In this document: piece by piece, positions 2,222 through 58,536 of the stretch
Numbering within the stretch: position 1 is the first letter of the stretch
How the letters are laid out: every line of letters begins with the position of its first letter
From: Firmicutes bacterium UBA7523
GTDB taxonomy: Bacteria; Bacillota; Dethiobacteria; Dethiobacterales; Dethiobacteraceae
Reading direction: 5' to 3'
Assembly: GCA_002479415.1 (NCBI GenBank)
Contig: DLMZ01000047.1
Location: 2,984 to 66,983, forward strand
Length of the DNA: 64,000 bases
Notes under the pieces: generated by a model
What the model was told of the DNA's origin: nothing
The model's input: the letters and a program-made list of their open reading frames with translations, nothing else
Databases searched by the model: none
Position numbers and translations under genes: made by a program

Positions 2222-2240
2222 TAAATATTCAGAATATTTA
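2222..2240 (+). promoter_or_regulatory. 19-bp perfect palindrome, candidate MarR autoregulatory operator
   Basis: TAAATATTC-A-GAATATTTA lies between an extended -10 (TGTTATAAT, 2200-2208) and the RBS of the MarR gene. Confidence 0.35.
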
Positions 2241-2262
2241 TATAGCAGTAAGGAGGATTCTG

Positions 2263-2760: not shown

Positions 2761-2787
2761 GGAGTTACTAGGTATTTCTGCTAAGCA

Positions 2788-3438: not shown

Positions 3439-3673
3439 AATACTTGCCTCCTCTGCTTCTGAATACATTATATTCTCAAAACACCTGCCAGTAAAGACCT
3501 GTTGAAAATACAAAAATGAGGCTGCAGTTTTGCAGCTATATACTGGCCGTAACGCTTGAAACATTGATTTTCAAATGTTTCAGGTTTTTTTATTTTAATC
3601 TTAAAATTTAATATACTTTTGCGGAAACTATAGCAGCCTTTTGGTATAATAATGACGACAGGAGGAACTGCTG

Positions 3674-15390: not shown

Positions 15391-15852
15391 TTGATGCTTT
15401 TGTTTCCTGTTATTGCCGCTGTGGCGGCCATAGTAAAGGAAATTGTGCTGCTTGTATCTTACTTAAATAACAATTCTTTTCCCCAGCCCTTATCTCCCCG
15501 AGAAGAGAAGAGACACCTGGATTTAATGTTTCAGGGTGACCCCTATGCCCGCAGTATACTGATTGAGCATAATCTCCGTTTAGTTGCCCATGTAATAAAA
15601 AAGTTTGAAAATACAGGAGATGACCAGGAGGACCTCATCTCCATCGGCACAGTCGGCTTGATAAAAGCTATTGATTCTTTTAGAAACGATAAAGGTACTC
15701 GATTGGCAACCTATGCTGCCCGTTGCATTGAAAATGAAATTTTGATGCATATACGAGCCAATGCTAAACGAAAAGCAGAAGTTCTTTTGCACGACCCAAT
15801 AGGCAATGATAAGGATGGAAATGAGTTTACGCTATGTTTATATCTGTACTAG
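15391..15852 (+). CDS. sigK: Pro-sigma-K, N-terminal segment only (spoIVCB-like), interrupted by the prophage
   Basis: The pro-sequence plus regions 1.2-2.4 match sigma-K ([75 protein letters not shown]). The frame then ends after a few unrelated codons, and regions 3-4 are missing. Confidence 0.85.
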
Positions 15853-17384
15853 TCTAGCTTCGGCAGTATATCTAGCTCGAAGTCATCTCCAACTTGATGC
15901 TTTTCTTTGAGATAGACGGCACGCTCCACTACAGATTTGAGGAGCGTGTTTTTCTTTTGGATATCGGATGTGAGCGGGTATACCTTCAGTACATGCTCCA
16001 CGGTGGGGATAATGTCGAGTTGAGCCTTAGATCTCTTGATTTCCGCCAGGAGAGAGGCTTTGGCAGTCTCTATACCTACCTTGGCGTCTTCGATGCGCTC
16101 AGCGAGACTCTGTGACCTCTCAAGATATGTTTCCTCATCATATATGCCGCGCTCAAGGAAGTCATGCAGTTTTTCTTTCTGCTTTTCCAGCTCGGCCAAC
16201 TCTCGGGCTAATGATTCTTTAGCAGCTTCGCGCAACTTCACGGCATCTGTCGAAGGGGTTGGCTTCTTGTTACGCCTGCCCCACTGGGCCTTATATGTCG
16301 ATAGCCACTCCTCGAGAACAGTCAGCAGTCGCTGCTCCACAAGCTCAAATTTAGACCCTTTGTTGTTACACATGCGATTTTGGCAAATCATATGCGGTTT
16401 CTGCTTAGCGTACGGTCGGCGCACCATCATCATGCCGCACTTATCACACACGATTAGGCCAGCCAAAGGGTTAGACAATGCACCGTTAATAAAATACGGA
16501 GGGTGGGTTCTAGTTTCAAGTATTTTCTGCGCTTTTTGAAAATCTTCTTTACTGACTAATGCTTCGTGCTTGCCCTCGACTTCAATCCATTCATCCTGCG
16601 GCCTGGTCCGGGTGTCCTTGCGCTTGCCAGGCTCTTTAGATTTTTTGCATTCTTTTTTTTGCCACTGAATAACTCCGGAGTAGACTGCATTCTTGATTAC
16701 ATTCTGGACAGCAGCCTGTGACCAAGGTATACCGGTATAAGAGAGCAGACCCATCTTGTTCAGCTCATTAGCTATTTTTGCACATCCCAGATTGTCGTTG
16801 ATGTACCGTGAAAATATTAGCTTTACGACCGGCGCTTGCTCCTCGTTCGGAATTAGTGTTCTGTGACCGTCAATTTTGGCTATATCGTAGCCGTAAGGAG
16901 GACGGGGGGGCAAGTATCTCCCCTGCTCAACAGAGGCAATACGGCCACGCTGGAGCCTCCTCGTGATGAGCTTTAGCTCCCGCCGGGCCATGAAGGTTTC
17001 AAACTCTGAGTACTCTTCATCAAATTCGTCTGAAAGATCATAGGTTTTGCGCGGAGTGATTATTTTTGTTTTGGACTGCTGGAACGCTTCTAGGATGATG
17101 CCTTGTTCGCGCATACCGCCGCGGCCAAGCCTGTCCAGGTCCATACAAAGCACAGCGTCATAAGAACCGGCTTCAATCTCCTTGAGCAGCTCAAGCATCT
17201 CCGGCCGGTGAAGGATTGATTCTCCGGAGACTATCTCTTCGTAGATTTTAATTATGTTGAGATTTTTTTCTTTGGCCACTTGAAGCAGGGCGCGCTTGTG
17301 CTTCGCCAGGGTTTCGCCTTCGCCATGGGCTTCGGCTTCGATGTCTTGGCGGGATTTTCGCAGGTAGATTGCTACACGTTCCAT
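15849..17384 (-). CDS. Large serine recombinase (SpoIVCA-like integrase/excisionase)
   Basis: ATG at 17384 follows GAGGTGA. N-terminal resolvase domain ([11 protein letters not shown] with catalytic Ser, LDRLGR), recombinase domain, Cys-rich zinc ribbon (C.KCG....C.NRMC), coiled-coil C-terminus. Confidence 0.9.
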
Positions 17385-17419
17385 GCTTATCACCTCGGCT
17401 TAGATATATCATAGGTGGT

Positions 17420-41598: not shown

Positions 41599-41674
41599 GC
41601 GGCAAAATTAAAAAGGAAGACAATTAACAAACAAAGAAATCAACGCAGCCTTGAGGGTAGGTGGTGAGAGTGTA

Positions 41675-42604
41675 GTGGCCAGGAAGCGCAGCCCGGAGCG
41701 AGACAAAGCGTACGAGATGTGGAAAGAGAGCGGAGGGGAAATGCCGCTTGTTGATATTGCCGCGAAGTTGGGCGTTAGTCCGGAACAGATACGGAAGTGG
41801 AAGCATCAGGATAAATGGTGTGCTGGGGGGCCGGAGAAAAAGGTAACGAGAAATGAAAAGGTAACGTTACCAAGGAAGGAAGAAAAGAAAAAGCAGAAAG
41901 GTAGCGTTACTAATAGGGTAGACGAGCAAATACTAAAAGAGATTGAAGAGGCAGAACTGACTGAAAAGCAGAAGTTGTTCTGCCTTTATTATATAAAAAA
42001 CTTTAATGCTACTCAGGCAGCAATCAGGGCTGGGTATAGCAAATGTAGCGCTCACGTAAGCGGGCCACGTCTATTAGGTAATGATAGAGTTAGAAATGAA
42101 ATCCGCCGCCTCAAGGGGGTAATGCACGAAGAGTTACTAATTGATGCAATGGATGTTCTTGCTAAGTATATCAAGATTGCCTTTTCCGACCCTTCCGAGT
42201 ACGTGACCTTTGGGCAAAAAGAGATTCAGGTTATGAATATGTTCGGACCTCTTTACGAAGAGGTAGGTGAAGGTGAACACAAAGTTAAGAAGCCGGTTAT
42301 GAAGACTGTCAACTACATTGACTTCAAAGAAAGCAGCGACGTTGACGGCTCCATCATAACCGAGGTTTCCCAGGGTAAGGACGGCGCAAAAATCAAATTC
42401 GCCGATAAGATGAAAGCCCTGGAAAAGCTAGAGCTCTACTTCGACCTTTTGCCTGACAAATGGAAGCGCCGCTTGGAGGAAGAGAAACTAGAGGTGCAGA
42501 AAAAGCGGCTGGACATAGATGACAAAGATAAGACTATGAAAGTTATGATAGTGGACAATATCCCTGAAGGCCCTGAGATTAACTCAGAGGGTGATGAGCA
42601 ATGA
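41675..42604 (+). CDS. Terminase small subunit (Terminase_2-like with N-terminal HTH)
   Basis: GTG follows GGTGGTGAGAG. LTEKQKLFCLYYIKNFNATQAAIRAGYS is the classic small-terminase motif. Confidence 0.8.
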   Translation: MARKRSPERDKAYEMWKESGGEMPLVDIAAKLGVSPEQIRKWKHQDKWCAGGPEKKVTRNEKVTLPRKEEKKKQKGSVTNRVDEQILKEIEEAELTEKQKLFCLYYIKNFNATQAAIRAGYSKCSAHVSGPRLLGNDRVRNEIRRLKGVMHEELLIDAMDVLAKYIKIAFSDPSEYVTFGQKEIQVMNMFGPLYEEVGEGEHKVKKPVMKTVNYIDFKESSDVDGSIITEVSQGKDGAKIKFADKMKALEKLELYFDLLPDKWKRRLEEEKLEVQKKRLDIDDKDKTMKVMIVDNIPEGPEINSEGDEQ

Positions 42605-44106
42605 TGCCGCAGACAAGCGAAAGCCTTCAAGTAAACTTAAACGATATAATTGCGCCCAGTTTTTACTCCCTTCACCATGATGTTAAACAAGAGCGCTTCA
42701 CTGAATTTTGGTTGCGCGGCGGCCGTGGTTCAACAAAATCATCATTTGCCAGCGCAGAGATCATCTTGGGCATGATGCGGGACGCAGACGCCGGGGAGCA
42801 TACTAACGCCGTAGCCTTGCGCAAGGTTAAGGACACGCTCCACGACTCCGTCTTTGAGCAGCTTTCTTGGGCTATAGAGAAGCTTGGCGTGTCTCATCAA
42901 TGGCATATCCCGCAATCAAAGCTAGAAATAACATATAAGCCAACAGGGCAGAAGATTTTGTTCCGCGGAGCAGATAACCCAAAAAAGATTAAGTCCACAA
43001 AGGTTAAGAAAGGTTATATTAAGTATATTTGGTTTGAGGAACTCGATGAGTTCTACGGCCCGGAAGAAATTAGGGTTATCAATCAATCCCTCATGCGTGG
43101 CGGCGAAAAGTTTCTCGTCTTGTACAGCTATAACCCGCCGAAGAGCTCCCGGTCTTGGGTTAACCATGAAGCCAAGATCCCAAAGCCAGGCCGGAAAGTG
43201 CATACATCAGATTACAGAGCTGTGCCAAAAGAATGGCTAGGCTCTATTTTTATTGCCGACGCAGAGCACTTAATGCGCACGAACGAAATGGCTTACCAGC
43301 ATGAGTACCTGGGCGAGGAGGTTGGCACAGGGCTTGAGATATTTACTAACGTAACATTAAGGAAAATTACCGATGAAGAAATTAGGGCTTTTGACCGCAT
43401 AAAGCAAGGGCTTGATTTCGGGTACGCTGTGGATCCGGTTTGTTTCGAGAAAATGCATTACGATAAGACCAGGAAACGGCTCTATATCTTCTATGAGTTT
43501 AGTGGGATAAAGACATCTAACCGTAAGCTTTATGTCGCTATTAAAGATCAACTGTCAACAATAACGACAGCTGACAGCGCCGAGCCTAAGAGCATTTCAG
43601 AGTTAAAGGGGTACGGCATGCAAATTAAGGGGGCCAAGAAAGGCCCTGATTCCGTTGACTATGGTATTAAATTCTTGAGTGAAGATATAGAGGAAATCAT
43701 CATCGACCCGGTAAGGTGTCCCAGGGCAGCGAAAGAGTTTATAAACTACGCTCTGGAAACTAACCAGCAGGGCGAGGTTATAAGTAGCTATCCGGACAAA
43801 GATAACCACTGTATAACTGGTGACACTATAGTGAACACCTTGAGTGGTGACTTTCCAATCTCACAACTGGTTGGAAGAGAAGGGCTTGTTCATTGTTACG
43901 ATGAGAAGAATAAAAAAGCTACTGCGTCACGATATCTTGATGTGCGTCTAACTAGGGAAAAAGCAAAGGTATACGAAATTGAATTAGAAGACGGGCGGAG
44001 AATAAAAGCGACAGAAGATCATCTTGTATTAACCCAGGACGGATGGAAGCAGGTTAAAAACATCGGCTGTACTGATAGCATCCTTGACATATCCAACCAC
44101 GCTTGA
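42601..44106 (+). CDS. Terminase large subunit N-fragment (ATPase and most of the nuclease domain) fused to intein N-splicing half
   Basis: Walker A GGRGSTKS, Walker B IWFEELDE, nuclease Asp motifs. At 43810 Cys1 starts Hint block A (CITGDTIV), followed by block B (ATEDHLVLT). Stop at 44104-44106. Confidence 0.85.
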   Translation: MMPQTSESLQVNLNDIIAPSFYSLHHDVKQERFTEFWLRGGRGSTKSSFASAEIILGMMRDADAGEHTNAVALRKVKDTLHDSVFEQLSWAIEKLGVSHQWHIPQSKLEITYKPTGQKILFRGADNPKKIKSTKVKKGYIKYIWFEELDEFYGPEEIRVINQSLMRGGEKFLVLYSYNPPKSSRSWVNHEAKIPKPGRKVHTSDYRAVPKEWLGSIFIADAEHLMRTNEMAYQHEYLGEEVGTGLEIFTNVTLRKITDEEIRAFDRIKQGLDFGYAVDPVCFEKMHYDKTRKRLYIFYEFSGIKTSNRKLYVAIKDQLSTITTADSAEPKSISELKGYGMQIKGAKKGPDSVDYGIKFLSEDIEEIIIDPVRCPRAAKEFINYALETNQQGEVISSYPDKDNHCITGDTIVNTLSGDFPISQLVGREGLVHCYDEKNKKATASRYLDVRLTREKAKVYEIELEDGRRIKATEDHLVLTQDGWKQVKNIGCTDSILDISNHA

Positions 44107-44140
44107 TACGATAAGGTATGGGTATGAAGGGGGCTCAAAT

Positions 44141-44803
44141 ATGGCCGAAAAAGTGCGTTACGAAGATGGGCAGAAATTTGCTTATTTCAACGGCATTAAG
44201 TTTACGCGGGATAATAAAACAGGATATTATTTAAATTCAACCATTCGAAAAAGGCTCCACCGCTATATCTGGGAGTTTTATAATGGAAAGGCCCCAAAAG
44301 GCCATCACGTGCATCATAAGGACCGAGATAAGAGTAATAACGATATCAGCAACTTAGGGCTTTTAAGACATGGTAAACATGTGACACTCCACGGCATTGA
44401 GAATTCCATGGACGATGAGTGGCTAGAACGGTCAAGGGAAAACCTTAAAGTAAACGCAAGGCCAAAAGCATCTGAGTGGCATAGGTCCGAAGAAGGCAAG
44501 GAATGGCATAAGCAACACTACGAATCATGTAAGGACAAATTCCACCGCAAAGTAAAAAGAAACTGCGATAACTGTGGAGCCGAGTTTGAAGCGTTGGATA
44601 ACGGGCTCAATAGATTCTGCAGCAATAAATGTAAGTCTGCATGGAGAAGAGCGACGGGACTTGATGATGAGGTGAAACAATGTGAATTTTGCGGAACAGT
44701 TTTTATTGCCAACAAATACAGTAAGCAGAAGTGCTGCTCAAAAGCCTGTTCTAATAGGCTCTCTCCCAGGCTCCCCATCCTTCGCAAAGGTAAAGTCAGT
44801 TAA
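44141..44803 (+). CDS. Free-standing HNH homing-type endonuclease between the intein halves
   Basis: ATG follows GAAGGGGG. HHKDRDKSNNDISNLGLLRHGKHVTLH, plus C-terminal CxxC zinc ribbons. In a different frame from both intein halves. Confidence 0.8.
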   Translation: MAEKVRYEDGQKFAYFNGIKFTRDNKTGYYLNSTIRKRLHRYIWEFYNGKAPKGHHVHHKDRDKSNNDISNLGLLRHGKHVTLHGIENSMDDEWLERSRENLKVNARPKASEWHRSEEGKEWHKQHYESCKDKFHRKVKRNCDNCGAEFEALDNGLNRFCSNKCKSAWRRATGLDDEVKQCEFCGTVFIANKYSKQKCCSKACSNRLSPRLPILRKGKVS

Positions 44804-44975
44804 GTTTGTTGGGGAACACGATGTTTACAATATGGAAGTCGCAGACCACCATAACTTTGCGGTTAATGGTGGTCTTATTATTCACAATTGTATAGATGCT
44901 GCAAGGTACGCCCTAGAAGATGAGATGAAAAATGCCAAGGCTAAAGCGCTGGGTGCTAAGCCGCGAGGATTTTAA
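44682..44975 (+). CDS. Intein C-splicing half plus terminase large subunit C-extein
   Basis: GTG follows GAGGTGA (8-nt spacing). Blocks F/G VYNMEV..HHNFAVNGGLIIHN, then Cys+1 at 44889 and IDAARYALEDE (the conserved TerL ..DA.RY.. nuclease motif). Confidence 0.7.
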   Translation: MNFAEQFLLPTNTVSRSAAQKPVLIGSLPGSPSFAKVKSVKFVGEHDVYNMEVADHHNFAVNGGLIIHNCIDAARYALEDEMKNAKAKALGAKPRGF

Positions 44976-45001: not shown

Positions 45002-46489
45002 TTGCCAAAACTCATAATCGGTAGCCAAGAGTACGAATCCTGGCCGCCAGACGATCCACAAAACAAAGCACGCCTGGAAAATTATAAGCGCTCCCGGCTG
45101 TTGTTTAAGGGTAAGCACCAGGACGTATATGAACGCATCCAGAAATGGCTGGAGCGCCAGGAAGATAAAGAGCTTATTTATATCGTCTGCAACTTTGCCG
45201 GCCTGCTTAGCAAAGTTTCTGCCGATATGCTTTTTGGTGAGCAGCCGCGCTTTGTGGCAGGAGAAGAGAAGTCAAAGGAGCAGGAAGCGCTTGATACCAT
45301 AGTCAAGAATAATAGTCTGCATGTCCTCAATTATGAGATGGCTCTTTCAGCAAGCTGGCGCGGAGAAGCGATATATAAAGTGCGCTTTGGTAAGTTCGCA
45401 GACTGGGCAGAGACTGAGCACGCGGTCATTGAGACAGTATCGCCCGAAATATTTTACCCTATTCTAGACGAGGACAACGTCCGGGGACTCAAAGGCGGAA
45501 TATTCGGCTGGGTAAAGCAAGGTCCTGGTGACAAGAAGTACCTGCGCATCGAGCGGCAGCTGCCTGGGCTTATAGAAAGCGAGCTATACGAGCTTGACGG
45601 CCGCAGTATCGGTCAGCGCGTAAAGCTCAATACTTTCCCGGAGTATGCTGACCTAGAAGATGTGCAGGAGACTAGATATCCTGGGTTGCTGTTTGAGGTC
45701 GTGCCAAACTGGCGGCTTGATGATGAGTTTTATGGGATTTCTGATTACTATGATTTAGAGGGAATCTTCGATGAGCTGAACAACAGGGTAAGTCGTATAT
45801 CTCGGGTCCTCGATAAACATGAGAGTCCTAAATTGATCTTGCCTCCCGGTATCATGAAATGGGACGAGAATTACCGGCGGTGGCACATCGAAAAAGAAGA
45901 CCTCGAAGCTATTGAGGTTAACCCGGCCGAGGAGCAAGTTGGGGACTTACCGCGCTATTTGACCTGGGACGCCCAGCTTGAAGCGGCATTCAAGCAGATA
46001 GACAAGCTGCTGGAGTTTGCCTTTATGGTGTCAGAGACTTCGCCGGACGCCTTCGGGCTTGGGAAAAGTGGCCAGGCTGAGAGCGGGAGGGCGCTGAAAT
46101 TTCGGTTGCTTCGTCTGCTGGCTAAGATAAACCGCAAAAAGCTCTACTTCGACGAAGCTTTACGAAATACACTTTACGCAGCGCAGTATCTCAACAACGT
46201 CTGGGGCCGCGGCCCGGAGCCGCAGGATGTCAGGATTGAGTGGCAGGACGGGTTGCCTGCGGATGAGTTGGAGCAGGCTCAGGTTGAGCAGACCCGCACT
46301 GGTAACAAAGCTACAAGCAGCGTCCGGAGCGCAGTGCGGCGGCTGGACAATTTGGATGGCGAGCAGCTGGAGGAAGAGCTTGAAGAGATAGCGAAGGACG
46401 AAAAGAGCCTGGGGGGGCAAGCCGCGGATCCTGCGCTGAGCATCACTTTGCCTGGCGTGGAGGGTGACGAAGAGCAAGAGGGTGAATAG
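45002..46489 (+). CDS. Portal protein (SPP1 gp6-like)
   Basis: Position after the terminase, about 495 aa, acidic C-terminus. Family call is from general pattern only. Confidence 0.7.
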   Translation: MPKLIIGSQEYESWPPDDPQNKARLENYKRSRLLFKGKHQDVYERIQKWLERQEDKELIYIVCNFAGLLSKVSADMLFGEQPRFVAGEEKSKEQEALDTIVKNNSLHVLNYEMALSASWRGEAIYKVRFGKFADWAETEHAVIETVSPEIFYPILDEDNVRGLKGGIFGWVKQGPGDKKYLRIERQLPGLIESELYELDGRSIGQRVKLNTFPEYADLEDVQETRYPGLLFEVVPNWRLDDEFYGISDYYDLEGIFDELNNRVSRISRVLDKHESPKLILPPGIMKWDENYRRWHIEKEDLEAIEVNPAEEQVGDLPRYLTWDAQLEAAFKQIDKLLEFAFMVSETSPDAFGLGKSGQAESGRALKFRLLRLLAKINRKKLYFDEALRNTLYAAQYLNNVWGRGPEPQDVRIEWQDGLPADELEQAQVEQTRTGNKATSSVRSAVRRLDNLDGEQLEEELEEIAKDEKSLGGQAADPALSITLPGVEGDEEQEGE

Positions 46490-48663
46490 TGATGTCCAAA
46501 TTTGGAGAAGGCAGCGGCGCTGCTCGCTTCAGCGATGTCCAGGCACAGAGACTGATAAAATTTTACGAACAGGCCGAACGTGAAATACTGGATCAGCTGA
46601 ACAGGGCATTACTTCGAGGCAACAAGACTGAGTATTTGGCCGGCATGAGGAGAAATATCGGGGCTATCCTAGGCGACCTGAGAAAGGGGAATAGAACATG
46701 GTGTGAAGAAGCGTTGCCAAGTGTGTACTCTCAAGGAATCCGCTCAACTGACATTATGTTGGGGCAAGAAGGGTTCAGGGTTAGTGATGTAGCAGGTTTT
46801 GGCACCCTCCATCAACAAGCGGCACAGGTCTTGGCGGAGAACACATATCAGCGGTTGGATAGTGTGGCGCAACTAATCGGGAGACGAACAGAGAGTGTAT
46901 ATCGCGACCTGGCCCTAGAGAATATTCGTGGTAGCGTAGTTGGGTATGACAGTTGGAGAGATGTAGCTAGGCGATATCACGAACAACTAGCAGAACAGGG
47001 AGTGACAGGATTTAAAGACGCAAAGGGTCGCAATTGGAATATGAAGAGCTATGCGGAGATGGTAGCTAGAACTAGCACTATGGAAGCGCATCTTCAAGGG
47101 ACTGCTAACCGCCTGGTGGAGCAAGGTCATGATTTAGTGAAGGTGAGCAGGCATCAAGGAGCTTGCGAATTATGCGTTCCCTGGGAGGGTTCGATATTAA
47201 GTATAACTGGCAAGACAGACGGGTACCCGACGTTAGAAGAAGCAAGGGGAGCAGGGCTGCTTCACCCGAACTGTTTCCCGGCTGGAGTATTAGTCAATGG
47301 TCCGGCACCATTGGCCGCGTTTGCCAGATGGTATGAGGGCGAGATAGTCATCATTACCACTGCCAGTGGAGTAGAATTGCCCGTCACCCCAAATCACCCT
47401 ATATTGACGCCTAAAGGATGGTTGGCTGCGGGACTGCTCAACAAAGGCGATGATATCATCCGCTACACAGGGCAAAAGGGGATGATAAGCGATATTGACC
47501 CAGACGATCAGGACATTCCAACCCCGATCGAACAAGTAGTTGACTCGTTCAGGGAGTCTTGCGGCGTGCCGTCCCGATGCATGCCAGTTACCCCCGAAGA
47601 CTTCCACGGCGACGGGGTCGGCTCCGAGGTCTATGTTGTATGGGCCGACAGCCTGTTGATGGGTGATAGCAATGTCTCTTTCGGCGAGCCATTCAGCAAG
47701 AATATGTTCTGTTTTGCTGATGTGAGATCCCACTTTTTGCTTACCTTTGGCACGCTTGTGCAGATCTTCATCAGAGCGCTTACTACCGCGCAGCGCTTGA
47801 TTGGCGGCACTAGTAAGAGCGCGTCGCTCTTCGGCTGTCATCCTTTCCATTCGGGTTCTCAAGGCTTCGGAGCGACTATTAGCAGTGGTAATGCCAAAAT
47901 TAGCGAGGCGTCTCTGAAGTGTAGCATGGTTAACACCCAAGCTTTCCGCAATAGCCTTCTTGGTTTCGCCAGCGAGATACCGTTGCAGAATCTTTTCGTT
48001 GTCCAAGGGAATGCGACGATTAATTCTTGCTTCGGCAAAGCTACGAATAGGGATACTATTTTTTTCAAGAATAGTTTTAACGGTTTGCTTGCCGACATGG
48101 AAGGTGGTCGCAAGTTGATGGAGCGACTCGCCGGAGGTATAGCGACGGATGAGATCACTAGCATCAAGGTTAACGCTTTTTCTGGACATGTTTATAACCT
48201 CCAAACTAAAGATGGTTGGTATGTTGCCAATTCAATTATAACACATAATTGCCGGCATTCTTATGGACTGCACATTGACCTTGACAAAGAGATCGAAGAT
48301 CTAGAAAAAGAGCTAAAAGATGTTGAAGATACATTGCCAGGCTATAAAAAAGCTGTTGTTCCCCCAGATAAACTAATTAATTATGTCTTAAATAAAGAAC
48401 ATTTACGTGGAGGCAAAGATAAGGCTATAGCTTTTGAAAGAGCTTTGGGTTATAATATTAATAACTATCAGGAGTTGATAGGCAATATTAAGGAAAACTT
48501 AAGGGCTTGGCCTGCTGCTTTAAAGGGTAAAAACCAATATGGTATGAAATATGAAGTCATGATGCTTCTAAGCGGGCCAAACGGGAAAACAGCAAAAGTG
48601 GTTACTGCTTGGTTGGTGGACAAAACAGGTGCGAGGTTGGTGAGTGCGTATGTCAAGGATTGA
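46489..48663 (+). CDS. MuF-like minor head (head morphogenesis) protein containing an intein and a C-terminal DUF6883-like domain
   Basis: MuF/SPP1 gp7 pattern ending in the conserved HPN-C-R motif. That motif is interrupted after HPN by 326 codons bounded by CFPAGVLV.. and ..SIITHN/C. Confidence 0.85.
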   Translation: MMSKFGEGSGAARFSDVQAQRLIKFYEQAEREILDQLNRALLRGNKTEYLAGMRRNIGAILGDLRKGNRTWCEEALPSVYSQGIRSTDIMLGQEGFRVSDVAGFGTLHQQAAQVLAENTYQRLDSVAQLIGRRTESVYRDLALENIRGSVVGYDSWRDVARRYHEQLAEQGVTGFKDAKGRNWNMKSYAEMVARTSTMEAHLQGTANRLVEQGHDLVKVSRHQGACELCVPWEGSILSITGKTDGYPTLEEARGAGLLHPNCFPAGVLVNGPAPLAAFARWYEGEIVIITTASGVELPVTPNHPILTPKGWLAAGLLNKGDDIIRYTGQKGMISDIDPDDQDIPTPIEQVVDSFRESCGVPSRCMPVTPEDFHGDGVGSEVYVVWADSLLMGDSNVSFGEPFSKNMFCFADVRSHFLLTFGTLVQIFIRALTTAQRLIGGTSKSASLFGCHPFHSGSQGFGATISSGNAKISEASLKCSMVNTQAFRNSLLGFASEIPLQNLFVVQGNATINSCFGKATNRDTIFFKNSFNGLLADMEGGRKLMERLAGGIATDEITSIKVNAFSGHVYNLQTKDGWYVANSIITHNCRHSYGLHIDLDKEIEDLEKELKDVEDTLPGYKKAVVPPDKLINYVLNKEHLRGGKDKAIAFERALGYNINNYQELIGNIKENLRAWPAALKGKNQYGMKYEVMMLLSGPNGKTAKVVTAWLVDKTGARLVSAYVKD
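47272..48249 (+). other. Intein (Hint domain) within the MuF gene
   Basis: Cys1 TGT at 47272. Block A CFPAGVLV, block B VTPNHPILT, then GWLAAGLLNKGDDI, blocks F/G GHVYNLQTKDGWYVANSIITHN, +1 Cys at 48250. 978 nt, in frame. Confidence 0.85.
47290..48189 (-). CDS. Vsr/DUF559-like (PD-(D/E)xK) homing-type endonuclease with two N-terminal HTH modules, encoded antisense inside the intein
   Basis: ATG at 48189 with GGAGG 7 nt upstream. Two resolvase-type HTH segments (GESLHQLATTFHVGKQTV; GETKKAIAESLGVNHATL). Core is GPYNIDLGADPVAVEVFGGNWH....H........L...GW.VL.VW. Confidence 0.75.
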   Translation of the reverse strand: MSRKSVNLDASDLIRRYTSGESLHQLATTFHVGKQTVKTILEKNSIPIRSFAEARINRRIPLDNEKILQRYLAGETKKAIAESLGVNHATLQRRLANFGITTANSRSEALRTRMERMTAEERRALTSAANQALRGSKRSDEDLHKRAKGKQKVGSHISKTEHILAEWLAERDIAITHQQAVGPYNIDLGADPVAVEVFGGNWHASGRHAARLPERVNYLFDRGWNVLIVWVNIAYHPLLPCVADDIIAFVEQSRSQPSFRRQYRVIWGDGQFYSTGSGNDDYLALIPSGKRGQWCRTID

Positions 48664-48835
48664 AGTTAAAGAATTTGATATAGTTAAACTTAAAGACGGC
48701 CGCGAAGGAACGGTGGTGCATATCCATGACCAGCCGGAGTTGCCGCTTGCTTATGAGATTGAGTTTGGGGGCAAACTGCAGCTTGAGACAGTAAAAGCTA
48801 AGGACGTAGAAGTGGTTGTTTGGAGAGAAAAATAG
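48644..48835 (+). CDS. DUF4926-like small protein (candidate partner/immunity of the MuF C-terminal domain)
   Basis: Overlaps the MuF stop. FD.VKLKDGREGTVV.I.......YE.EF fits the DUF4926 pattern as I remember it. Confidence 0.55.
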   Translation: MRMSRIEVKEFDIVKLKDGREGTVVHIHDQPELPLAYEIEFGGKLQLETVKAKDVEVVVWREK

Positions 48836-48844
48836 CACCTTTGG

Positions 48845-49195
48845 TTAGGTGCTTTTCTTTTTGGCCTTATCTGGTTTTGTCACCCCTTCTACAGCAATCC
48901 CATAAATCAACCGGTCATTGAACCTCATAGGAATCAATGCTCGACTTTTATAGCAATAACAGTTATGCTCTTGAACCCAGACAGCATTGCCGAATTTTAT
49001 CTTGGTGCCAGGCCTGGGGTTATGATAAGGGAACCCACAGGATTTCCAAAACAAGCGAGTATGCTCTTTGCCTAGACGAATCAGGGTAGGGAGCATTTTG
49101 TTTTGATAAAGTAAGCCTAGGCGATAATTGATACCAACATGAACATCAAGTTTATCCTGGGGCATATACCAATCCATAAACAACACCTCTGGCAA
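48845..49195 (-). CDS. Hypothetical protein, reverse-oriented within the morphogenesis region
   Basis: 116-aa ORF. No family recognised. Confidence 0.45.
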   Translation of the reverse strand: MPEVLFMDWYMPQDKLDVHVGINYRLGLLYQNKMLPTLIRLGKEHTRLFWKSCGFPYHNPRPGTKIKFGNAVWVQEHNCYCYKSRALIPMRFNDRLIYGIAVEGVTKPDKAKKKST

Positions 49196-49243: not shown

Positions 49244-49510
49244 ATGGGAAGCTCAGCAAGCAATCAAAAAAATAAAGTAGTTCGACTGCATCACAAAACT
49301 GTAGTTAAGGCCCTGAAGGATATGCTAGAGCTAGCTCAAAATGGGAAACTGCGAAGCATTGTCATGGCTGGGAATGTCCGAGAAAAAGGCGGCGAAGAAC
49401 TAACATACACCAGTTGGGCTAATGCCGAGCCTGGCCACAGGATGGAGCTTATAGGGCACCTGCAGATTGATGTGATGATGGATGTCGTTGCTGTAAATCT
49501 CATTGAATAG
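49244..49510 (+). CDS. Hypothetical protein
   Basis: ATG follows AAGGAG. 88 aa. Confidence 0.5.
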   Translation: MGSSASNQKNKVVRLHHKTVVKALKDMLELAQNGKLRSIVMAGNVREKGGEELTYTSWANAEPGHRMELIGHLQIDVMMDVVAVNLIE

Positions 49511-49652: not shown

Positions 49653-50402
49653 GTGGCCCAGGTGGCCAAGAGTTTATACCCGGGCAATATCGACTTGCAA
49701 ATGTTTGCAGATGGAGGAGAGGGGGATCCGCAGGCAAAGGGAGGATTCTCCGCCGCATACGTCCAGGAGCTGCGCGATGAAGCTGTCGCATGGCGAAAAA
49801 AACTGCGCACTGCGGAGGAAGAGCGCGACGACTACAAGTCCAAGCTGGACACCGCAAACAAGAAATCAACAGACCTTGAAGGTCAAAACAAAACGCTTCT
49901 GGAAAGCGTTGCAGGCGCTTTGGGGCTCGATGCAGCCAAAGTAAAACCGGAAGAAATCCCCGGCAAGATAAAGGACGCAATAAGTAGCAATAACGCAGCT
50001 GTAGACAAAGCTCAGGAAGCTTTGCGTAAATCAGCATTTATTGCCGCTGCTGTCAAGCAAGGCGTTCGCAAGGAAGCCCTAGAGGATGCTTACAAACTAG
50101 CGGATTTTTCTGCAGTTAAGGTGGACTTAGAATCCATGTCTGTGTTCCCGGTGGACAAGGACGGCAACCAAATTATTGGTGAAGACAAAAACCCCGTGAC
50201 TGGCCTTGATTCTCTAGTGGGCGCCTTGGCTAAGGACAAGCCGTATTTGGTAGGCAAGGTCGGAGGTGTAGGCAGCTCATCTAACCCAGGTGCTGGCAGT
50301 CAAGGGTCTGGTGATGCCGATAGCTTTGGGGCGGAGCTTGGCAAGAAACAGAAAGAGCAGAGCAAGAAGCACAGTGAAAGCCAGAACATTTATTTCGGTT
50401 AA
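49653..50402 (+). CDS. Scaffolding protein (GP20-like)
   Basis: Coiled-coil, charged protein upstream of the capsid genes. The likely start is the second GTG at 49662, after AGGAGG. Confidence 0.65.
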   Translation: MAQVAKSLYPGNIDLQMFADGGEGDPQAKGGFSAAYVQELRDEAVAWRKKLRTAEEERDDYKSKLDTANKKSTDLEGQNKTLLESVAGALGLDAAKVKPEEIPGKIKDAISSNNAAVDKAQEALRKSAFIAAAVKQGVRKEALEDAYKLADFSAVKVDLESMSVFPVDKDGNQIIGEDKNPVTGLDSLVGALAKDKPYLVGKVGGVGSSSNPGAGSQGSGDADSFGAELGKKQKEQSKKHSESQNIYFG

Positions 50403-50426: not shown

Positions 50427-51170
50427 ATGAGCAAATTTGTTGAAACCACGTTTGGTGGCACGCAAGAAATACTGAAATTCCCTGACCATTATGTTGCCAT
50501 GCCAGTAATGGTCAGCGACTCTGGAGTGTCGGCTAACGAGCAAGGCAAGAAAATTGTCCCGAAAGGTACAATTATTGGCGGAGCTTCCGCAGCGGTGTTA
50601 AGAAACCTTGACCAGGCCGCGGTGAATAAATTCGTTGACGCAGCATATGCAGACAAAACAATTGGGGCAACTGGTAGCAATAATGCTATCTACGGCAAAG
50701 CGTTGGAGCCTGGCACTGGCGGGAACAGCATCAAAATTACCTTGGTTGACCCCAGCGCAAACGATGAGCCTCTGGCGGTTGCTGTTACCGGTAAGGAAAT
50801 CGTCGTTACCTTAGCCACTGGAGGAGCAGGCGCAATCACTAGCACAGCAGCGCAGGTAGTGACAGCTCTTAACGCTAACGAGGTTGTAGCTGAGTTTGCG
50901 ATCTTTACTGCTGACATCGAAAGCAATGATGGTGGGTCAGGGGCATGTGGGGCTGTAGCTGAAACTGCTTTTGACGGCGGCCATAACGGCGTTGTAACTG
51001 GTGCAGAGGGCGTACTTAAAAATGATATTGATGTGACCTATGGCCCAAAAGAAGGCGCAATGATTCTGCACGGCTTCATTAAGGTTGCTGCGCTTCCATA
51101 CGGGAGCAAGAATGATTTGGCTGCGGATGCCGCCGCATCCGCTTTGCCAATCATTAAGTTTATTAAGTAA
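50427..51170 (+). CDS. Capsid-associated protein (possible head decoration protein)
   Basis: Position between the scaffold and a lambda-E-like major capsid gene. Ala/Gly/Val-rich. Confidence 0.4.
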   Translation: MSKFVETTFGGTQEILKFPDHYVAMPVMVSDSGVSANEQGKKIVPKGTIIGGASAAVLRNLDQAAVNKFVDAAYADKTIGATGSNNAIYGKALEPGTGGNSIKITLVDPSANDEPLAVAVTGKEIVVTLATGGAGAITSTAAQVVTALNANEVVAEFAIFTADIESNDGGSGACGAVAETAFDGGHNGVVTGAEGVLKNDIDVTYGPKEGAMILHGFIKVAALPYGSKNDLAADAAASALPIIKFIK

Positions 51171-51202
51171 TATTATAAAAAACACATGGAGAGTGATTTA
51201 GA

Positions 51203-52264
51203 ATGAGCCAAACCATTTTTGACATGGTAAACGCCCAAGAGATAGCATCATATTGGAGCGAAGCCGTTGAAAACCAGATCCCATATTTAGGCGCGACTCT
51301 GTTCCCGCCAAAAAAACAGCTTGGGCTTGATTTGTCGTGGATTAAGGGTTATCAGGGGCTTCCAGTTGCCCTGACGCCCTCAGCCTTCGACGCGAAAGCA
51401 ACCCTGCGCGATCGCATCGGCGTCAAAAAGATTGAGACCGAAATGCCGTTTTTCCGTGAATCTATGAGAATCGGCGAAAAAGACCGACAGGAAATAAACA
51501 AGCTCCTGGCAGCTTCCAACAGGGCAACTTTGGAGCCAATCCTTAACCGCATCTTCGATGATGCTGGCAACCTGATTGCCGGCGCCGAAGTGCAGGCAGA
51601 GCGTATGCGCATGCAACTTCTCGCAACTGGCAGGATTCAGATTGTAGCCGAAAATCGTATGAGCTACGATTATGACTACAAACATCCTGGCGACCATAAA
51701 GAGACATTACTCACCACTGCCAGGTGGAGTCAGTCAGAAACAGCAGTGCCGGTTCAAGATATTCAGCGTTGGCAGGATGAAGTTGAAGAGAACACTGGAG
51801 TGCGTCCGACTAGAGCAGTATGTAGCCGCAAAACGTGGAACTATCTGATGGCAAACAAGTCCATTCGCTTGGATATGGATCCCATTGGCGGGACAAACCG
51901 CATCATGACTGATGCTATGCTACAGCAGTATCTAGCAACTAAGCTGGGATTGTCTGTAGCGGTATACAGCAAAAAGTATCAGACTGAGCTTGGCGGAGCC
52001 TCATATTCGTTCTTCCCAGACGAAGTATTTTCCTTAATCCCCGATGGAAATCTGGGAAACACCTACTTCGGCACAACTCCGGAAGAATCGGACTTGTTGG
52101 CAGGCGGAACTGACGCAGAGGTTAGAATTGTCAATACTGGCGTGGCCGTCACAACTTTTAAAGAGGTTCACCCGGTAAACGTCGTGACTGTTGTCTCCGC
52201 GATCACGCTGCCTAGTTTTGAAACACTGGATAATGTGTTCATAGCAACTGTGCATACAGCGTAA
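51203..52264 (+). CDS. Major capsid protein (lambda gpE-like family)
   Basis: N-terminal ..IFD........Y.........YLG..LFP pattern, size 353 aa, followed by a strong terminator. Confidence 0.75.
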   Translation: MSQTIFDMVNAQEIASYWSEAVENQIPYLGATLFPPKKQLGLDLSWIKGYQGLPVALTPSAFDAKATLRDRIGVKKIETEMPFFRESMRIGEKDRQEINKLLAASNRATLEPILNRIFDDAGNLIAGAEVQAERMRMQLLATGRIQIVAENRMSYDYDYKHPGDHKETLLTTARWSQSETAVPVQDIQRWQDEVEENTGVRPTRAVCSRKTWNYLMANKSIRLDMDPIGGTNRIMTDAMLQQYLATKLGLSVAVYSKKYQTELGGASYSFFPDEVFSLIPDGNLGNTYFGTTPEESDLLAGGTDAEVRIVNTGVAVTTFKEVHPVNVVTVVSAITLPSFETLDNVFIATVHTA

Positions 52265-55797: not shown

Positions 55798-58536
55798 ATG
55801 AACTTTGGCGAGCTTTTCGTCCGGATGGCCGTAGACGAAAGACAATATGAAAAAGAATTGGACAGGCTTGAGGGCGTTACACAAAAGAAGGCCGTGACCC
55901 TAGGAAGCATCTTCAAAGGTGCTTTTTCTTTTGCCCTTGGGATGGGTCTTGTTTCTGGTTTTCGGTCAATCACCGACGCTGTGATTGACTTTGCAAATAC
56001 CGCATCAAGGACTCAGATGTTAGATATAGCGCTTCAGTCAGTAGCGCAATCATCTGGATACGTTTATTCAGCGATAAAAGAACAGAGAAACGCCATGGAA
56101 GACTTAGGCATTGCAGAGCAAGAAGCCTCTCAAATTCTTACTCGCTTCATGCAGGCTCAATTGGATGTTGCCGATGCGTCGAAGCTTGCAAGGGTTGCTC
56201 AAGACGCAGCTGTAATAGGCGGATATAATTCATCTGAAGCGGCAGAGCAAATGACCGAGGCTATCGCCAAGCAGCGTCCGCAACTGCTGTCTGCATTTGG
56301 ATTTACCCGCAATTTGAATGATATCTACAACGATTATGCTAAAACTGCTGGTAAAACCGCAAACAAGCTGTCTGAGGCTGAGAAAAAGCAGGCAATGTTA
56401 AATTACATCCTCAAAGAGGGCGAAAAAATAGCCGGAACTTACGAGGCTAGCATGGGGAGTGTCGGAAAAAAAATTGGCTCACTAGCTCGTTGGTGGAGCA
56501 AATTAAAAAACGTTATTGCAACACCTTTAGCGTTGCCGGTGCTAGACATTTTTGTCGAAGGCGTTACCAAAGGGCTAAAGAATGCCGTAGCCTGGGGCGA
56601 AGCAAATGAAGTAACAATGCGCAGATGGGGACAGACAGCGGTTAATGTCGCGACACTGATCGCTCGTGGCTTTATGTTTGTGGCTAGCGTGATACAGCGG
56701 AACTGGCAGCTTACACGCTTTGCCGGGACAGCGCTTATTTTTTATAAGGTAGCGACGAAGGCAGCATCTGGGGCATCGGCACTATTTAGTACAATAACGC
56801 TGGCGATTAATGGACAGTTAACAACGAAGATCCCACTGCTCGGATTTGTAAGTACTGCGATGGGGATATACAAGATGCAGATGTACTTGGCATCCAAAGC
56901 CGGCATTGCCCTAACCGGTGTGTTGGCTAAAGTTAAATTGGCGTTGTATTCTGTTTGGACTGCATTAGGCCCTATCGGCTGGATAATGATAGGATTGTCC
57001 GTGTCTGTGGCCGGGGGCGTTTCGCTTTGGAACAAATATAACCAATCACTACAAAAGGTGCCGAAAGCCTCTGCCGACGTAGCAGACGCGACCAGCGGCG
57101 CAACAAAGTCTTTGTATGACCAGGCAGAAGCCATGAGCGAAGCCGGGAAAGCAGCAAGCAAGAACCTTCAATCATTTGACGAAGTTCATCAACTGCAGGA
57201 GGATATGGCTGGTAGCGGAGAAGGCGTGCTGGATGGGCTGGACATAGATGGTCTGGGTGGCGGCATTTCGTCATTGGACGTTGAAGACATGCTTTTTGGA
57301 GTTGAACAAGCCAAGGGGACACTGGCTGGCTTTTGGGGATGGATTAAACAAGAAGCAAGCAAAACCTGGGGAGAAGTAAAGTTTGTAGCATCCGCAATTT
57401 GGCAGAAAATTAAAGAACGATGGAACTACGAAATAAACGAAACTAAAATGCTGGTTCAAAAGGTATGGAGCGGTATAAAAGAAGAATGGAATAAATTTAT
57501 CTCCTGGGCGGGGAATTTGTGGGATGGAGCAAAAGCCAAGTGGAATGATTTCAAGGATTGGGTAAAAAACGGATTTGGCTCTCTCTGGGACGGGGTAAAA
57601 GAAAAATGGGATAACTTCAAAGAGTGGTTGGCTAATCTCTGGGACGGAGTAAAAGAAAAATGGGGCGGCTTTACTGACTGGGTTTCTGAAAAATGGGATA
57701 GCTTTAGAACAAGAGCCGGAGAGATTTGGGGCAGCATAAAGGACTCAGTGTTGACAAGATGGGAAGGGATCCGAAACGCTACTCAGGCAATATGGTCTTT
57801 CATTTCCGCGTTTATAATTTCTTTGTGGCAGGGGGTACTGTCAACTGCAGTTAATGTTTGGTCTTCGCTGTATGCGGCTGTTAGTAAAACTTGGAACAGC
57901 GTACTTGATGCGGCTACATCTACATGGGAGGCCATCAAAATGGCTGTTTCGAGTCGCGTTAACAACACTAGAGACGTGATAGTATCTGCATGGAACAACG
58001 TAAGGGCAAGCCTTGCAGCGACATGGGAAAGCATAAGCAGCACAGCGGTCAGCATTTGGGGCGGTATCACCAATGTAATCAAAGGTGCCATCAACGGCAT
58101 CATCGGGCTTATAAACAAATTCATCGGTGCATTTAACAGGATAGAAATACAAGTACCTTCGGCGAACATTCCGCTGGTCGGAGAAGTTGGCGGGTGGAGT
58201 GTGAAAGTTCCGCAGATTCCGAGGATACCGATGCTGGCTAAGGGAACTAATTATGTACCAGAAGACATGCTTGCATTCCTGCACAAAGGAGAGGCCGTAG
58301 TCCCTGAAAAATTCAACAACAATCAATCGGCAACCGCCGGCGCCGAGGTTTATGAAGCTGTATATAGTGCAATTCGCGATGCCTTCAGAAGCATGCAGTC
58401 AGAACAAAACAGATCAGAGCAACAGCATGAAGCGGTATTTTATGTTGATTCCCATCGTATAGCCAGGGCTATCCTGCCGGCACTAGTAAAAGAAGGGCAG
58501 CGAACCGGGGTTTCTGTGGTGACGGCGGGAACGTAA
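55798..58536 (+). CDS. Tape measure protein
   Basis: 912 aa, with hydrophobic central segments and Trp-periodic repeats. Canonical position. Confidence 0.9.
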   Translation: MNFGELFVRMAVDERQYEKELDRLEGVTQKKAVTLGSIFKGAFSFALGMGLVSGFRSITDAVIDFANTASRTQMLDIALQSVAQSSGYVYSAIKEQRNAMEDLGIAEQEASQILTRFMQAQLDVADASKLARVAQDAAVIGGYNSSEAAEQMTEAIAKQRPQLLSAFGFTRNLNDIYNDYAKTAGKTANKLSEAEKKQAMLNYILKEGEKIAGTYEASMGSVGKKIGSLARWWSKLKNVIATPLALPVLDIFVEGVTKGLKNAVAWGEANEVTMRRWGQTAVNVATLIARGFMFVASVIQRNWQLTRFAGTALIFYKVATKAASGASALFSTITLAINGQLTTKIPLLGFVSTAMGIYKMQMYLASKAGIALTGVLAKVKLALYSVWTALGPIGWIMIGLSVSVAGGVSLWNKYNQSLQKVPKASADVADATSGATKSLYDQAEAMSEAGKAASKNLQSFDEVHQLQEDMAGSGEGVLDGLDIDGLGGGISSLDVEDMLFGVEQAKGTLAGFWGWIKQEASKTWGEVKFVASAIWQKIKERWNYEINETKMLVQKVWSGIKEEWNKFISWAGNLWDGAKAKWNDFKDWVKNGFGSLWDGVKEKWDNFKEWLANLWDGVKEKWGGFTDWVSEKWDSFRTRAGEIWGSIKDSVLTRWEGIRNATQAIWSFISAFIISLWQGVLSTAVNVWSSLYAAVSKTWNSVLDAATSTWEAIKMAVSSRVNNTRDVIVSAWNNVRASLAATWESISSTAVSIWGGITNVIKGAINGIIGLINKFIGAFNRIEIQVPSANIPLVGEVGGWSVKVPQIPRIPMLAKGTNYVPEDMLAFLHKGEAVVPEKFNNNQSATAGAEVYEAVYSAIRDAFRSMQSEQNRSEQQHEAVFYVDSHRIARAILPALVKEGQRTGVSVVTAGT

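Follow-up and report, generated by a model that had tools for sequence, protein, structure and literature searches.

The window, as we call the whole 64,000-nucleotide stretch of DNA that was analysed, contains in the head module of a temperate prophage a gene that probably codes for a MuF polymorphic toxin, the toxin domain of which is a predicted tRNase, together with the gene of its presumed cognate immunity protein. MuF polymorphic toxins with a small immunity ORF behind them form a recognised class (PMC5576092; PMC5512222). As in the MuF toxins described in temperate Firmicute phages (Jamet et al. 2017, PMC5576092; Zhang et al. 2012, PMC3482391), a MuF-superfamily domain was found directly 3' of the portal gene. 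The further traits given by Jamet et al. (2017) are also present, namely a C-terminal predicted toxin domain of a nuclease-type fold, followed by an ORF of less than 150 aa (61 aa here), coded in a temperate prophage (head-tail module and serine integrase) of the Bacillota. DUF6883, the family of the toxin domain, is not among the toxin domains named in that work (PMC5576092). The link between DUF6883, DUF4926 (the family that the small partner resembles) and MuF was already reported, as BECR-Tox3, in a preprint of August 2026 (bioRxiv 10.64898/2026.08.28.747851) that likewise concluded that DUF6883 is an RNase of the colicin-like BECR type, and the window is thus a further example of a described pairing. 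It agrees with the preprint in the Pfam family, the downstream DUF4926 gene, the C-terminal fusion to a MuF-type protein and the colicin-like BECR topology (in our case from a model). It differs in the fusion partner, which is Phage_Mu_F in the preprint and its sister family Phage_min_cap2 in the window, in the presence of an intein just upstream of the toxin, and in a DUF4926 gene that, judged from its sequence, is of a divergent subfamily under the cut-off of Pfam.

The carrier is a temperate siphovirus-like prophage that sits in a 2.1-Mb bacterial MAG contig. Its head-tail module (TerS, TerL, portal, MuF, scaffold, capsid and tape measure) and a large serine integrase were found in the same window, and the cassette lies in the head module (Table 1). 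Between the immunity gene and a convergent reverse ORF of 116 aa there is a hairpin that looks like a candidate bidirectional terminator, as a consensus match only. The reverse ORF was considered as a second immunity gene or another part of the cassette and rejected, since it is not kept across DUF6883 loci; it was found only in the closest phage lineage (loci L002-4, L008-9 and L010/11/50) and had no match in PHROGs, NCBIfam or Pfam.

Table 1 Features of the MuF toxin cassette and of its prophage in the window
Feature	Coordinates	Strand	Remarks
Large serine integrase (phrog_95)	15852-17393		same window
Portal gene (phrog_533)	45002-46489		abuts MuF start at 46489
MuF ORF, 724 aa	46489-48663	+	start is the last base of the portal gene
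MuF N-extein, aa 1-261, ending ..LLHPN	46489-47271	+	Phage_min_cap2 (MuF2-type) core
Intein, aa 262-587, 326 aa, Cys1 to ..THN	47272-48249	+	within the MuF motif, between HPN and CR
C-extein rest of MuF core (CRHSYGLHI) and charged helical linker LDKEIEDLEKELKDVEDT	48250-48333	+	
DUF6883 / BECR-Tox3 domain, aa 616-723, then D724 and TGA 48661-48663	48334-48663	+	PF21814
Ribosome-binding stretch GAGGTTGGTGAG	48633-48644	+	within the 3' end of the toxin gene; ATG 48650 follows after 5 nt
DUF4926-like gene, 61 aa; GTG 48644 is an alternative start	48650-48835	+	PF16277, syntenic homologues
Hairpin AGCACCTTTGGTTAGGTGCT with flanking T-runs on both strands	48834-48863		terminator scan reports both strands

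The core of the MuF protein matched Phage_min_cap2 (PF06152) in Pfam (residues 18-262 of the ORF, E 3.5e-29) and also the minor head protein phrog_581 in PHROGs. The intein region gave weak matches to Intein_splicing, TIGR01445 and TIGR01443 in profile searches. Its downstream junction at 48250 is confirmed by an intein-less homologue of 394 aa (locus L002) that aligns on both sides, to residues 13-262 and 588-724, with 68% identity to the N-extein; Cys588 is the first residue past the intein. After splicing the protein would measure 398 aa. For the rest of the MuF core and the linker after it, AlphaFold modelled residues 2-14 as a helix, though at a low pLDDT (53-77), and this stretch is poorly conserved over the DUF6883 family. 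The residue strings that the first-pass annotation had quoted from the MuF tail are all found in the translation of the ORF.

That annotation had also named the C-terminal domain as DUF6883, and this holds with a full-length Pfam match far above the gathering score (PF21814, 83.4 bits against 27, E 1.7e-23 for the C-terminal piece alone), covering positions 2-109 of the 110 of the profile. The family is large, with 3,916 clusters at 50% identity matching at E<=1e-3. The AlphaFold (AF2) model of the domain (pLDDT 91.1) has three helices (27-34, 43-54 and 58-74) and then a four-stranded sheet (77-83, 86-96, 102-112 and 115-124), a topology that agrees with the "pre-alpha + alpha-beta1-4" definition of the colicin-like group (bioRxiv 10.64898/2026.08.28.747851). 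When this predicted structure was compared with the PDB by Foldseek, the only four matches at E<=1e-3 were the chains of 6CP9 (E 8e-5 to 2e-4, probability 1.00, TMq 0.62-0.65), which is the entry for CdiA-CT/CdiI of Klebsiella pneumoniae 342 (Kp342; Gucinski et al. 2019, as reviewed in PMC9086364); the TM score was 0.65 and the identity 20%. At the level of sequence no link with characterised RNase families appeared in the PDB profile and Pfam searches. The toxin alignment profile gave chance matches only against all PDB chains at E<=10 (for example a 6-carboxytetrahydropterin synthase with E about 0.1), and seven diverse DUF6883 domains scanned against Pfam at E<=10 found no second family. 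The BECR link is structural only, because the profile search returned nothing beyond chance matches. With this model as the basis, the domain is predicted to be a BECR RNase toxin of the colicin-D/CdiA-CT type.

The conserved residues point in the same direction. Among 205 sequences of the family the conserved positions included K628 (99%), Y632 (99%), K645 (100%), T706 (93%), W708 (100%), R716 (86%) and S/T719 (96%), and the window copy keeps every polar residue conserved throughout the family (K628, Y632, K645, Y655, N659, N698, K700, T706, W708, R716, S719 and Y721). In the model the pre-alpha helix carries K628 and Y632, and beta4 carries R716 and S/T719. CdiA-CT of Kp342 is a ColD-like tRNase with K157, Y160, H170, R252 and T255 (PMC9086364). 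In both proteins the core consists of helices followed by four strands, an early helix carries a K-x2/3-Y pattern and the last strand R-x2-T/S. The Kp342 enzyme shows stimulation by EF-Tu, EF-Ts and GTP. We infer that the active site would be built from K628 and Y632 (pre-core helix) and R716 and S719 (last strand), by a resemblance of pattern to Kp342 and not by residue-level superposition; K645, T706 and W708 probably also take part. The position of H170 is tentatively occupied by a lysine in DUF6883. The two systems also differ in that identity is only 20% with no sequence-profile link, and in delivery, which is by CDI two-partner secretion in Gram-negatives for CdiA-CT and on a phage head protein in the window. 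Both immunity proteins are all-beta (DUF4926 according to its model), CdiI of Kp342 being a dimeric beta-sandwich and the window partner a 61-aa SH3-like barrel.

The domain could instead be an inactive RNA- or DNA-binding module or a structural appendage of the head, the small ORF then being an assembly chaperone or an unrelated moron. A precedent is gpF of phage Mu, whose PBECR domain is described as inactive (Iyer et al. 2017, PMC5512222), and the conserved histidine typical of many colicin-like BECR RNases is absent from the alignment of the 205 DUF6883 sequences. We consider this highly improbable, because a set of polar residues conserved at 86-100% across such diverged sequences corresponds in type and order to the catalytic set of the Kp342 tRNase, the small ORF also stays with free-standing copies that are remote from phage head genes, and a dedicated partner whose divergence outpaces that of the domain (see below) is in keeping with an inhibitor.

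The target of a toxin of this fold is a separate question, and a variant of the main reading more than an exclusive rival to it. Similar BECR cores act on very different substrates (PMC9086364), an EF-Tu-dependent BECR rRNase was described in a 2026 preprint, and a weaker Foldseek match was found with the Salmonella TA toxin 7VD7 (probability 0.91), all of which would suit cleavage of mRNA on the ribosome (RelE-like) or of rRNA (as by colicin E3 and by the SRL-cleaving toxins that depend on EF-Tu), or even a non-nuclease activity (ParE-like). A target other than tRNA nevertheless seems doubtful to us, as the sole significant match among solved structures is a ColD-like tRNase and DUF6883 has been assigned to the colicin-like branch, where tRNA is the usual target of the members characterised so far (bioRxiv 10.64898/2026.08.28.747851). 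Another relevant comparison for a predicted tRNase on a head protein is with the PBECR domains (Iyer et al. 2017, PMC5512222), which are phage BECR RNase domains placed C-terminally in MuF and in portal proteins and predicted to be packaged and injected. Their N-terminal helix is described with His (or Arg) and their C-terminal part with Thr/Ser, where DUF6883 has K/Y, and they mostly lack a dedicated immunity gene, whereas DUF6883 is paired with DUF4926. One DUF6883-bearing protein carries PBECR3 too, and DUF6883 is sometimes found at the C-terminus of portal-MuF fusions.

The small gene that follows overlaps the MuF stop, as had been noted from the sequence, and does so by 14 nt. Start ATG 48650, giving a 61-aa product, is favoured since the homologues begin with MS(R/K)I. 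A matching layout (AAGGTTGGTGAG ... ATG, with a 14-nt overlap) was found at locus L002, and the arrangement suggests that the immunity gene is translationally coupled to the toxin gene. The likeness to DUF4926 claimed for its product stands by transitive homology and not by the curated threshold. The product itself matched PF16277 with 23.8 bits against a gathering score of 29.1 (E 3e-5, residues 13-39 only), but among the 48 syntenic homologues that were aligned, 34 have a DUF4926 match (best E 8.8e-23), which makes "DUF4926-like" a valid description, and its close homologues have precomputed PF16277 matches. Nothing beyond this weak match was found in PHROGs, NCBIfam or Pfam. The AF2 model (pLDDT 93.1) is a five-stranded SH3-like barrel whose best PDB matches were Tudor, KOW and SH3-like barrels, none of them significant. 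A search for RNA-seq covering the immunity gene in the lysogen found no runs; the one run available is of DNA and belongs to a hydrocarbon metagenome, probably the source sample. We predict that the DUF4926-like protein is the cognate immunity protein.

The proposal that DUF6883 and DUF4926 genes occur as adjacent pairs was borne out by a neighbourhood check. In 50 non-redundant loci that had been picked by the toxin motif alone, a DUF4926-like ORF was found directly downstream on the same strand in 41, counting partners that start from -22 to +102 nt from the toxin stop. Two of the nine loci without a downstream partner are cut by the end of the contig. The order is toxin gene first and then DUF4926. 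The fusion of such a C-terminal toxin-type domain to MuF that had been proposed is general too, as Phage_min_cap2 or Phage_Mu_F was detected on 26 of the 37 long DUF6883 ORFs of these loci and on 56 of 76 long cluster representatives; Phage_min_cap2 is the carrier in 33 of the 76, a frequency as high as that of Phage_Mu_F. Free-standing pairs were found adjoining genes for EF-G, UvrA, a PBP and a histidine kinase, and also cas1-cas2, the pair at locus L074 lying directly 3' of the latter. Another free-standing pair, in Geomicrobium sp. JCM 19039 (locus L055), has a portal gene nearby. The presence of free-standing pairs beside housekeeping genes indicates an autonomous toxin/antidote unit and not a piece of the head-assembly machinery.

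These chromosomal settings are typical of TA modules, and the pair might therefore act within the producing cell, serving there for addiction, for abortive infection or as a toxin-antitoxin module, or else effecting a late shut-off of the host, the MuF fusion only tying its expression to the late genes. The apparent coupling of the immunity gene to the toxin would suit this, as would the result of a consensus scan (weak evidence by nature) that found no promoter-like site on the plus strand 5' of the immunity gene, and the sporadic distribution of the pair, which occurs in one of 61 related genomes. Even so, we regard action in the producing cell as improbable. In most of the representatives and locus ORFs just counted the domain forms the very C-terminal end of a virion protein, as is the case in polymorphic toxins that are delivered and in polyvalent proteins (PMC5576092, PMC5512222). 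The modelled DUF4926 barrel has no recognisable DNA-binding domain that could serve the autoregulation usual in a type II antitoxin. A likeness to type II modules may be seen in the free-standing chromosomal pairs; the gene order, however, is toxin first, and the window toxin is fused to a virion protein.

In line with a MuF polymorphic toxin and its cognate inhibitor, the divergence of toxin and immunity protein is correlated (Mantel r 0.72, reached by none of 2000 permutations), a correlation that fits physical co-evolution or plain linkage alike. In 84% of the pairs identity is lower for the immunity protein than for the toxin, which makes it the faster-diverging of the two. No extra or orphan copies were found in the host genome and 60 relatives. 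We also searched 50,697 GenBank phage records, in which tblastn with three diverse DUF6883 domains and blastn with the cassette gave no match, nor did tblastn with two DUF4926 proteins, short queries of low power; as a control, the MuF core matched 175 records. There is no cultured phage model yet because DUF6883 is absent from these 50,697 deposited phage genomes. For DUF6883 or DUF4926 only bioinformatic mentions were found in the published literature, and toxicity of MuF C-terminal domains has been shown only for others, such as (p)ppApp synthetases (PMC12226406).

If the cassette works as a MuF-delivered toxin, the DUF6883 domain would be a metal-independent endoribonuclease, most likely a tRNase. 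During late gene expression the SH3-like DUF4926 protein would bind the toxin and block it in the producing cell, while intein splicing would yield the 398-aa MuF-toxin to be packed in the capsid, in few copies and with the portal. The MuF-toxin would be ejected with the DNA, the immunity protein staying behind, and would cut RNA in the new cell ahead of phage gene expression. The purpose may be host takeover, blunting of defence or biasing of the lysis-lysogeny decision. That MuF C-terminal domains are packaged in virions and ejected is a hypothesis of the literature, and the tolerance of the injected toxin by a new lysogen would be a difficulty for this reading.

It is also conceivable, if unlikely, that the cassette works as a timed translation brake. 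The ejected DUF6883 tRNase would cut a specific tRNA before phage expression and the late DUF4926 protein would switch it off, so that the cassette would set the lysis-lysogeny outcome or pre-empt defence. Toxin and functional MuF core would be joined only after splicing, and loading of the capsid would therefore need protein splicing. The free-standing pairs, including the one at L074, would be captured copies, and such captured chromosomal pairs would provide the host with immunity to these phages or act as abortive-infection modules.

What is newly added here is the count of partners in 41 of 50 loci, the share of Phage_min_cap2 as a carrier, the free-standing pairs in non-phage contexts and the absence from deposited phage genomes. 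The established picture of MuF polymorphic toxins is left unchanged by the example in the window. MuF toxins are common in the prophages of gut and environmental Bacillota. The copy in the window is clean and intact, its model is confident, candidate catalytic residues can be named for it and its partner protein is evident. A clean example with a partner and a short list of residues makes a toxicity and immunity test simple to design.

The 724-aa MuF ORF carries Phage_min_cap2, the MuF2 branch of the MuF superfamily, at residues 18-262 (Pfam, E 3.5e-29) and a complete Pfam DUF6883 domain at residues 616-723. Compared alone with the DUF6883 profile, the C-terminal 137 aa scored 83.4 bits (gathering score 27) and covered profile positions 2-109 of 110. 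An intein is inserted between both domains. An intein-less homologue of 394 aa from a metagenomic phage contig (L002) has 67-68% identity to MuF residues 13-262 and 588-724, and its alignment at either side of the intein indicates that the spliced product would be a contiguous 398-aa MuF-DUF6883 protein. The ORF found antisense within the intein contains two helix-turn-helix domains (HTH_7, HTH_23, CENP-B_N) and a weak match to REase_MTES_1575 (Vsr-like endonuclease); it resembles a homing endonuclease gene carried on the strand opposite the intein, with the intein frame kept open.

The small downstream ORF more likely opens at ATG 48650, since its homologues begin with MS(R/K)I. This codon is preceded by GAGGTTGGTGAG and gives an overlap of 14 nt with the MuF stop, an arrangement that L002 keeps. 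The small protein scored 23.8 bits against DUF4926, below the 29.1 cut-off, but 34 of 48 aligned proteins from the same position beside DUF6883 genes do match this family (best E 8.8e-23). By sequence it probably belongs to a divergent DUF4926 subfamily, the sole caveat to the first-pass annotation, which had described a DUF6883-like domain on MuF followed by an overlapping DUF4926-like gene and was correct in every part.

Features of the MuF-DUF6883 cassette and its surroundings
Feature	Position (nt)	Strand	Remarks
Large serine integrase	15852-17393		PHROGs
Small terminase	41651-42604		PHROGs
Large terminase	from 42601		PHROGs
Large terminase intein region	43810-44888
HNH gene	44084-44803		free-standing
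Portal	45002-46489		PHROGs
MuF ORF	46489-48663	+	724 aa
MuF intein	47272-48249	+	326 aa (residues 262-587), in MuF HPN/CR motif
Intein-antisense ORF	47290-48204	-	304 aa
Small ORF (DUF4926-like)	to 48835	+	start GTG 48644 or ATG 48650
Hairpin	48834-48863	both	T-runs on both strands
Reverse ORF	48845-49195	-	116 aa, without family match
Forward ORF	49244-49510	+	88 aa, phrog_35043 (unknown function), E 9e-13
Scaffold	49653-50402		PHROGs
Head proteins	50427-52264		PHROGs
Tape measure	55798-58536		PHROGs

The PHROGs module, the genome (2.1 Mb, 97.6% complete, 59 contigs) and the hydrocarbon metagenome that is the sole public run holding this stretch place the cassette among the head genes of a temperate, siphovirus-like prophage whose bacterial host is uncultured. 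According to the ORF list, the large terminase gene contains intein halves in different frames around the HNH gene. Directly after the small ORF, and before the convergent reverse ORF, the hairpin looks like a bidirectional terminator. It lies midway along the head operon; late transcription must read through or restart for the scaffold and capsid genes. The phages most closely related to this one conserve the reverse ORF in an equivalent place (L002, 6183-6515, 71% identity; L008/L009; L010/L011/L050). It was not found at other DUF6883 loci, which rules it out as part of the toxin cassette and makes it lineage-specific cargo. The forward 88-aa ORF lies between it and the scaffold gene.

Viral and genome collections were searched with the toxin-only peptide pattern FExALGYN, giving 72 loci that formed 50 clusters at 90% identity, and the partner was sought with a profile made from the small protein of the window together with close relatives. 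In 41 of the 50 clusters a same-strand partner ORF starts between -22 and +102 nt from the toxin stop, bearing out, in loci chosen by toxin motif only, the earlier statement that both genes are common neighbours. Nine clusters have no partner (two of them cut by the contig end), and the profile matched nowhere else in these loci. Among 37 long DUF6883 ORFs, 17 contained Phage_min_cap2 and nine Phage_Mu_F. A profile search run exhaustively through 1.84 billion cluster representatives gave 3,916 DUF6883 matches at E<=1e-3 (1,728 at E<=1e-10); in nearly all of the best 150 of the 3,916 the domain lay at the C-terminus or no more than about ten residues from it, and the best matches of at least 250 aa (n=76) included 33 with Phage_min_cap2 and 23 with Phage_Mu_F.

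Architectures beyond plain MuF-DUF6883 were seen in L016, L053 and two further long ORFs: some DUF6883 proteins are portal-MuF-toxin fusions of 800+ aa (Phage_portal also in three of the 37), and in others DUF6883 is joined to DUF5662, PBECR3 or a metallopeptidase-type domain, as in polyvalent proteins. In another phage lineage (L005-L007, 5370-6627; L052, 2199-3459) the MuF-DUF6883 gene consists of two overlapping ORFs (215 + 208 aa, 17-nt overlap), both matching Phage_min_cap2. This arrangement recurs, being found in nine contigs and an uncultured Clostridium MAG; instead of an assembly error, it may reflect programmed frameshifting or a gene that is genuinely in two parts.

The remaining DUF6883 members are short and free-standing. 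Their pairs adjoin unrelated housekeeping genes (EF-G, UvrA, class A PBP, histidine kinase, threonine dehydratase, Dam-type methylase) and once cas1-cas2, indicating an autonomous unit that has been repeatedly attached to MuF and is not a part of head assembly. In the cas case (L074, a Bacillota MAG, 1733-3535) the pair is right downstream of cas1 and cas2, and the toxin ORF overlaps the cas2 end. Such chromosomal pairs favour a rival reading, a module that may act only in the producer (toxin-antitoxin-like, abortive infection or late shut-off), against which the strong bias of the domain to virion-protein C-termini argues.

The AlphaFold2 model of the C-terminal domain, built from a 57-sequence alignment, was confident (pLDDT 91.1, pTM 0.80): three helices (model residues 27-34, 43-54 and 58-74) lead into an antiparallel sheet of four strands, a predicted BECR-like fold. 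Foldseek against the PDB gave four matches at E<=1e-3, each to a chain of 6CP9, the Klebsiella pneumoniae 342 CdiA-CT/CdiI complex (E 8e-5, probability 1.00, TM 0.65, 20% identity), and no other significant match; no sequence-profile link from DUF6883 to any characterised RNase was found. The Kp342 toxin cleaves uncharged tRNA-Ile(GAU) in its acceptor stem, with stimulation by EF-Tu/EF-Ts/GTP, and relies on the triad Lys-Tyr-Thr (K157, Y160, T255) along with H170 and R252 (PMC9086364). The polar residues conserved across 205 distinct DUF6883 sequences, numbered in the unspliced ORF, were K628 (99%) and Y632 (99%) in the first core helix, K645 (100%), Y655 (99%), N659 (96%), N698 (97%) and K700 (86%), T706 (93%) and W708 (100%) in strand 3, and R716 (86%), S/T719 (96%) and Y/H721 (94%) in strand 4, all present in the window's protein. 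The order K-x3-Y ... K ... R-x2-S/T resembles the K-x2-Y ... H ... R-x2-T of Kp342, and from this likeness of pattern we infer the residue mapping. The order also fits the published placing of colicin-like BECR active sites on the pre-alpha helix and the final strand (bioRxiv 10.64898/2026.08.28.747851). Alternatively, as has been proposed for Mu gpF, the domain may be an appendage that binds nucleic acid but is inactive; the conserved set of polar residues and the presence of the partner away from phage genes both speak against this.

The small protein was modelled with confidence as a five-stranded SH3/Tudor/KOW-like barrel (pLDDT 93.1), with no significant match to a solved structure and no catalytic or DNA-binding signature found in it; this plain predicted barrel is consistent with a simple binder. 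Divergence of the toxin correlates with that of the partner (r 0.72, reached by none of 2000 permutations) and the partner diverges faster (mean identity 35% vs 43%, lower in 84% of pairs), a sequence pattern expected of toxin-immunity pairs, the correlation of which linkage alone could also give.

Three diverse tblastn queries did not find DUF6883 in 50,697 deposited phage genomes, 175 of which matched the MuF core used as positive control. PHROGs has no family for it, and the three homologues in BFVD come from uncultivated viromes. Its distribution is sporadic, the window's genome being the only carrier among 61 related genomes. To date the effector has been seen solely in uncultivated phages and in prophages.

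The window combines a virion-protein fusion, a predicted BECR-like fold, an intact conserved residue set and an overlapping, tightly linked partner gene. We propose that the DUF6883 domain would be a metal-independent endoribonuclease, most likely a tRNase; a substrate other than tRNA, a variant of this reading suggested by the wide range of BECR substrates, may also apply. The DUF4926 protein, made with the toxin from the late transcript, would block it in the producing cell. Spliced MuF-toxin would be built in near the portal in few copies, leave the capsid with the DNA and without the inhibitor, and act in the next cell. This delivery step is a hypothesis carried over from other MuF toxins (Zhang et al. 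2012, Jamet et al. 2017, Iyer et al. 2017; PMC3482391, PMC5576092, PMC5512222). A scan for promoter-like sites found none from which the immunity gene could be expressed separately. A new lysogen might survive the injected toxin through its low copy number, its narrow range of substrates or its instability.

MuF polymorphic toxins with a small immunity gene downstream are a concept from 2012-2017 (PMC3482391, PMC5576092), and BECR domains fused to MuF and portal were described in 2017 (PMC5512222). An August 2026 preprint placed DUF6883 among the colicin-like BECR families as BECR-Tox3, usually followed by DUF4926 and frequently fused to Phage_Mu_F (bioRxiv 10.64898/2026.08.28.747851), statements reproduced here independently. 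To these we add the adjacency numbers, the non-phage contexts of the free-standing pairs, Phage_min_cap2 as an equally common carrier, the candidate catalytic set and the SH3-like model of the partner. The cassette chiefly offers a clean test case for a predicted toxin family.
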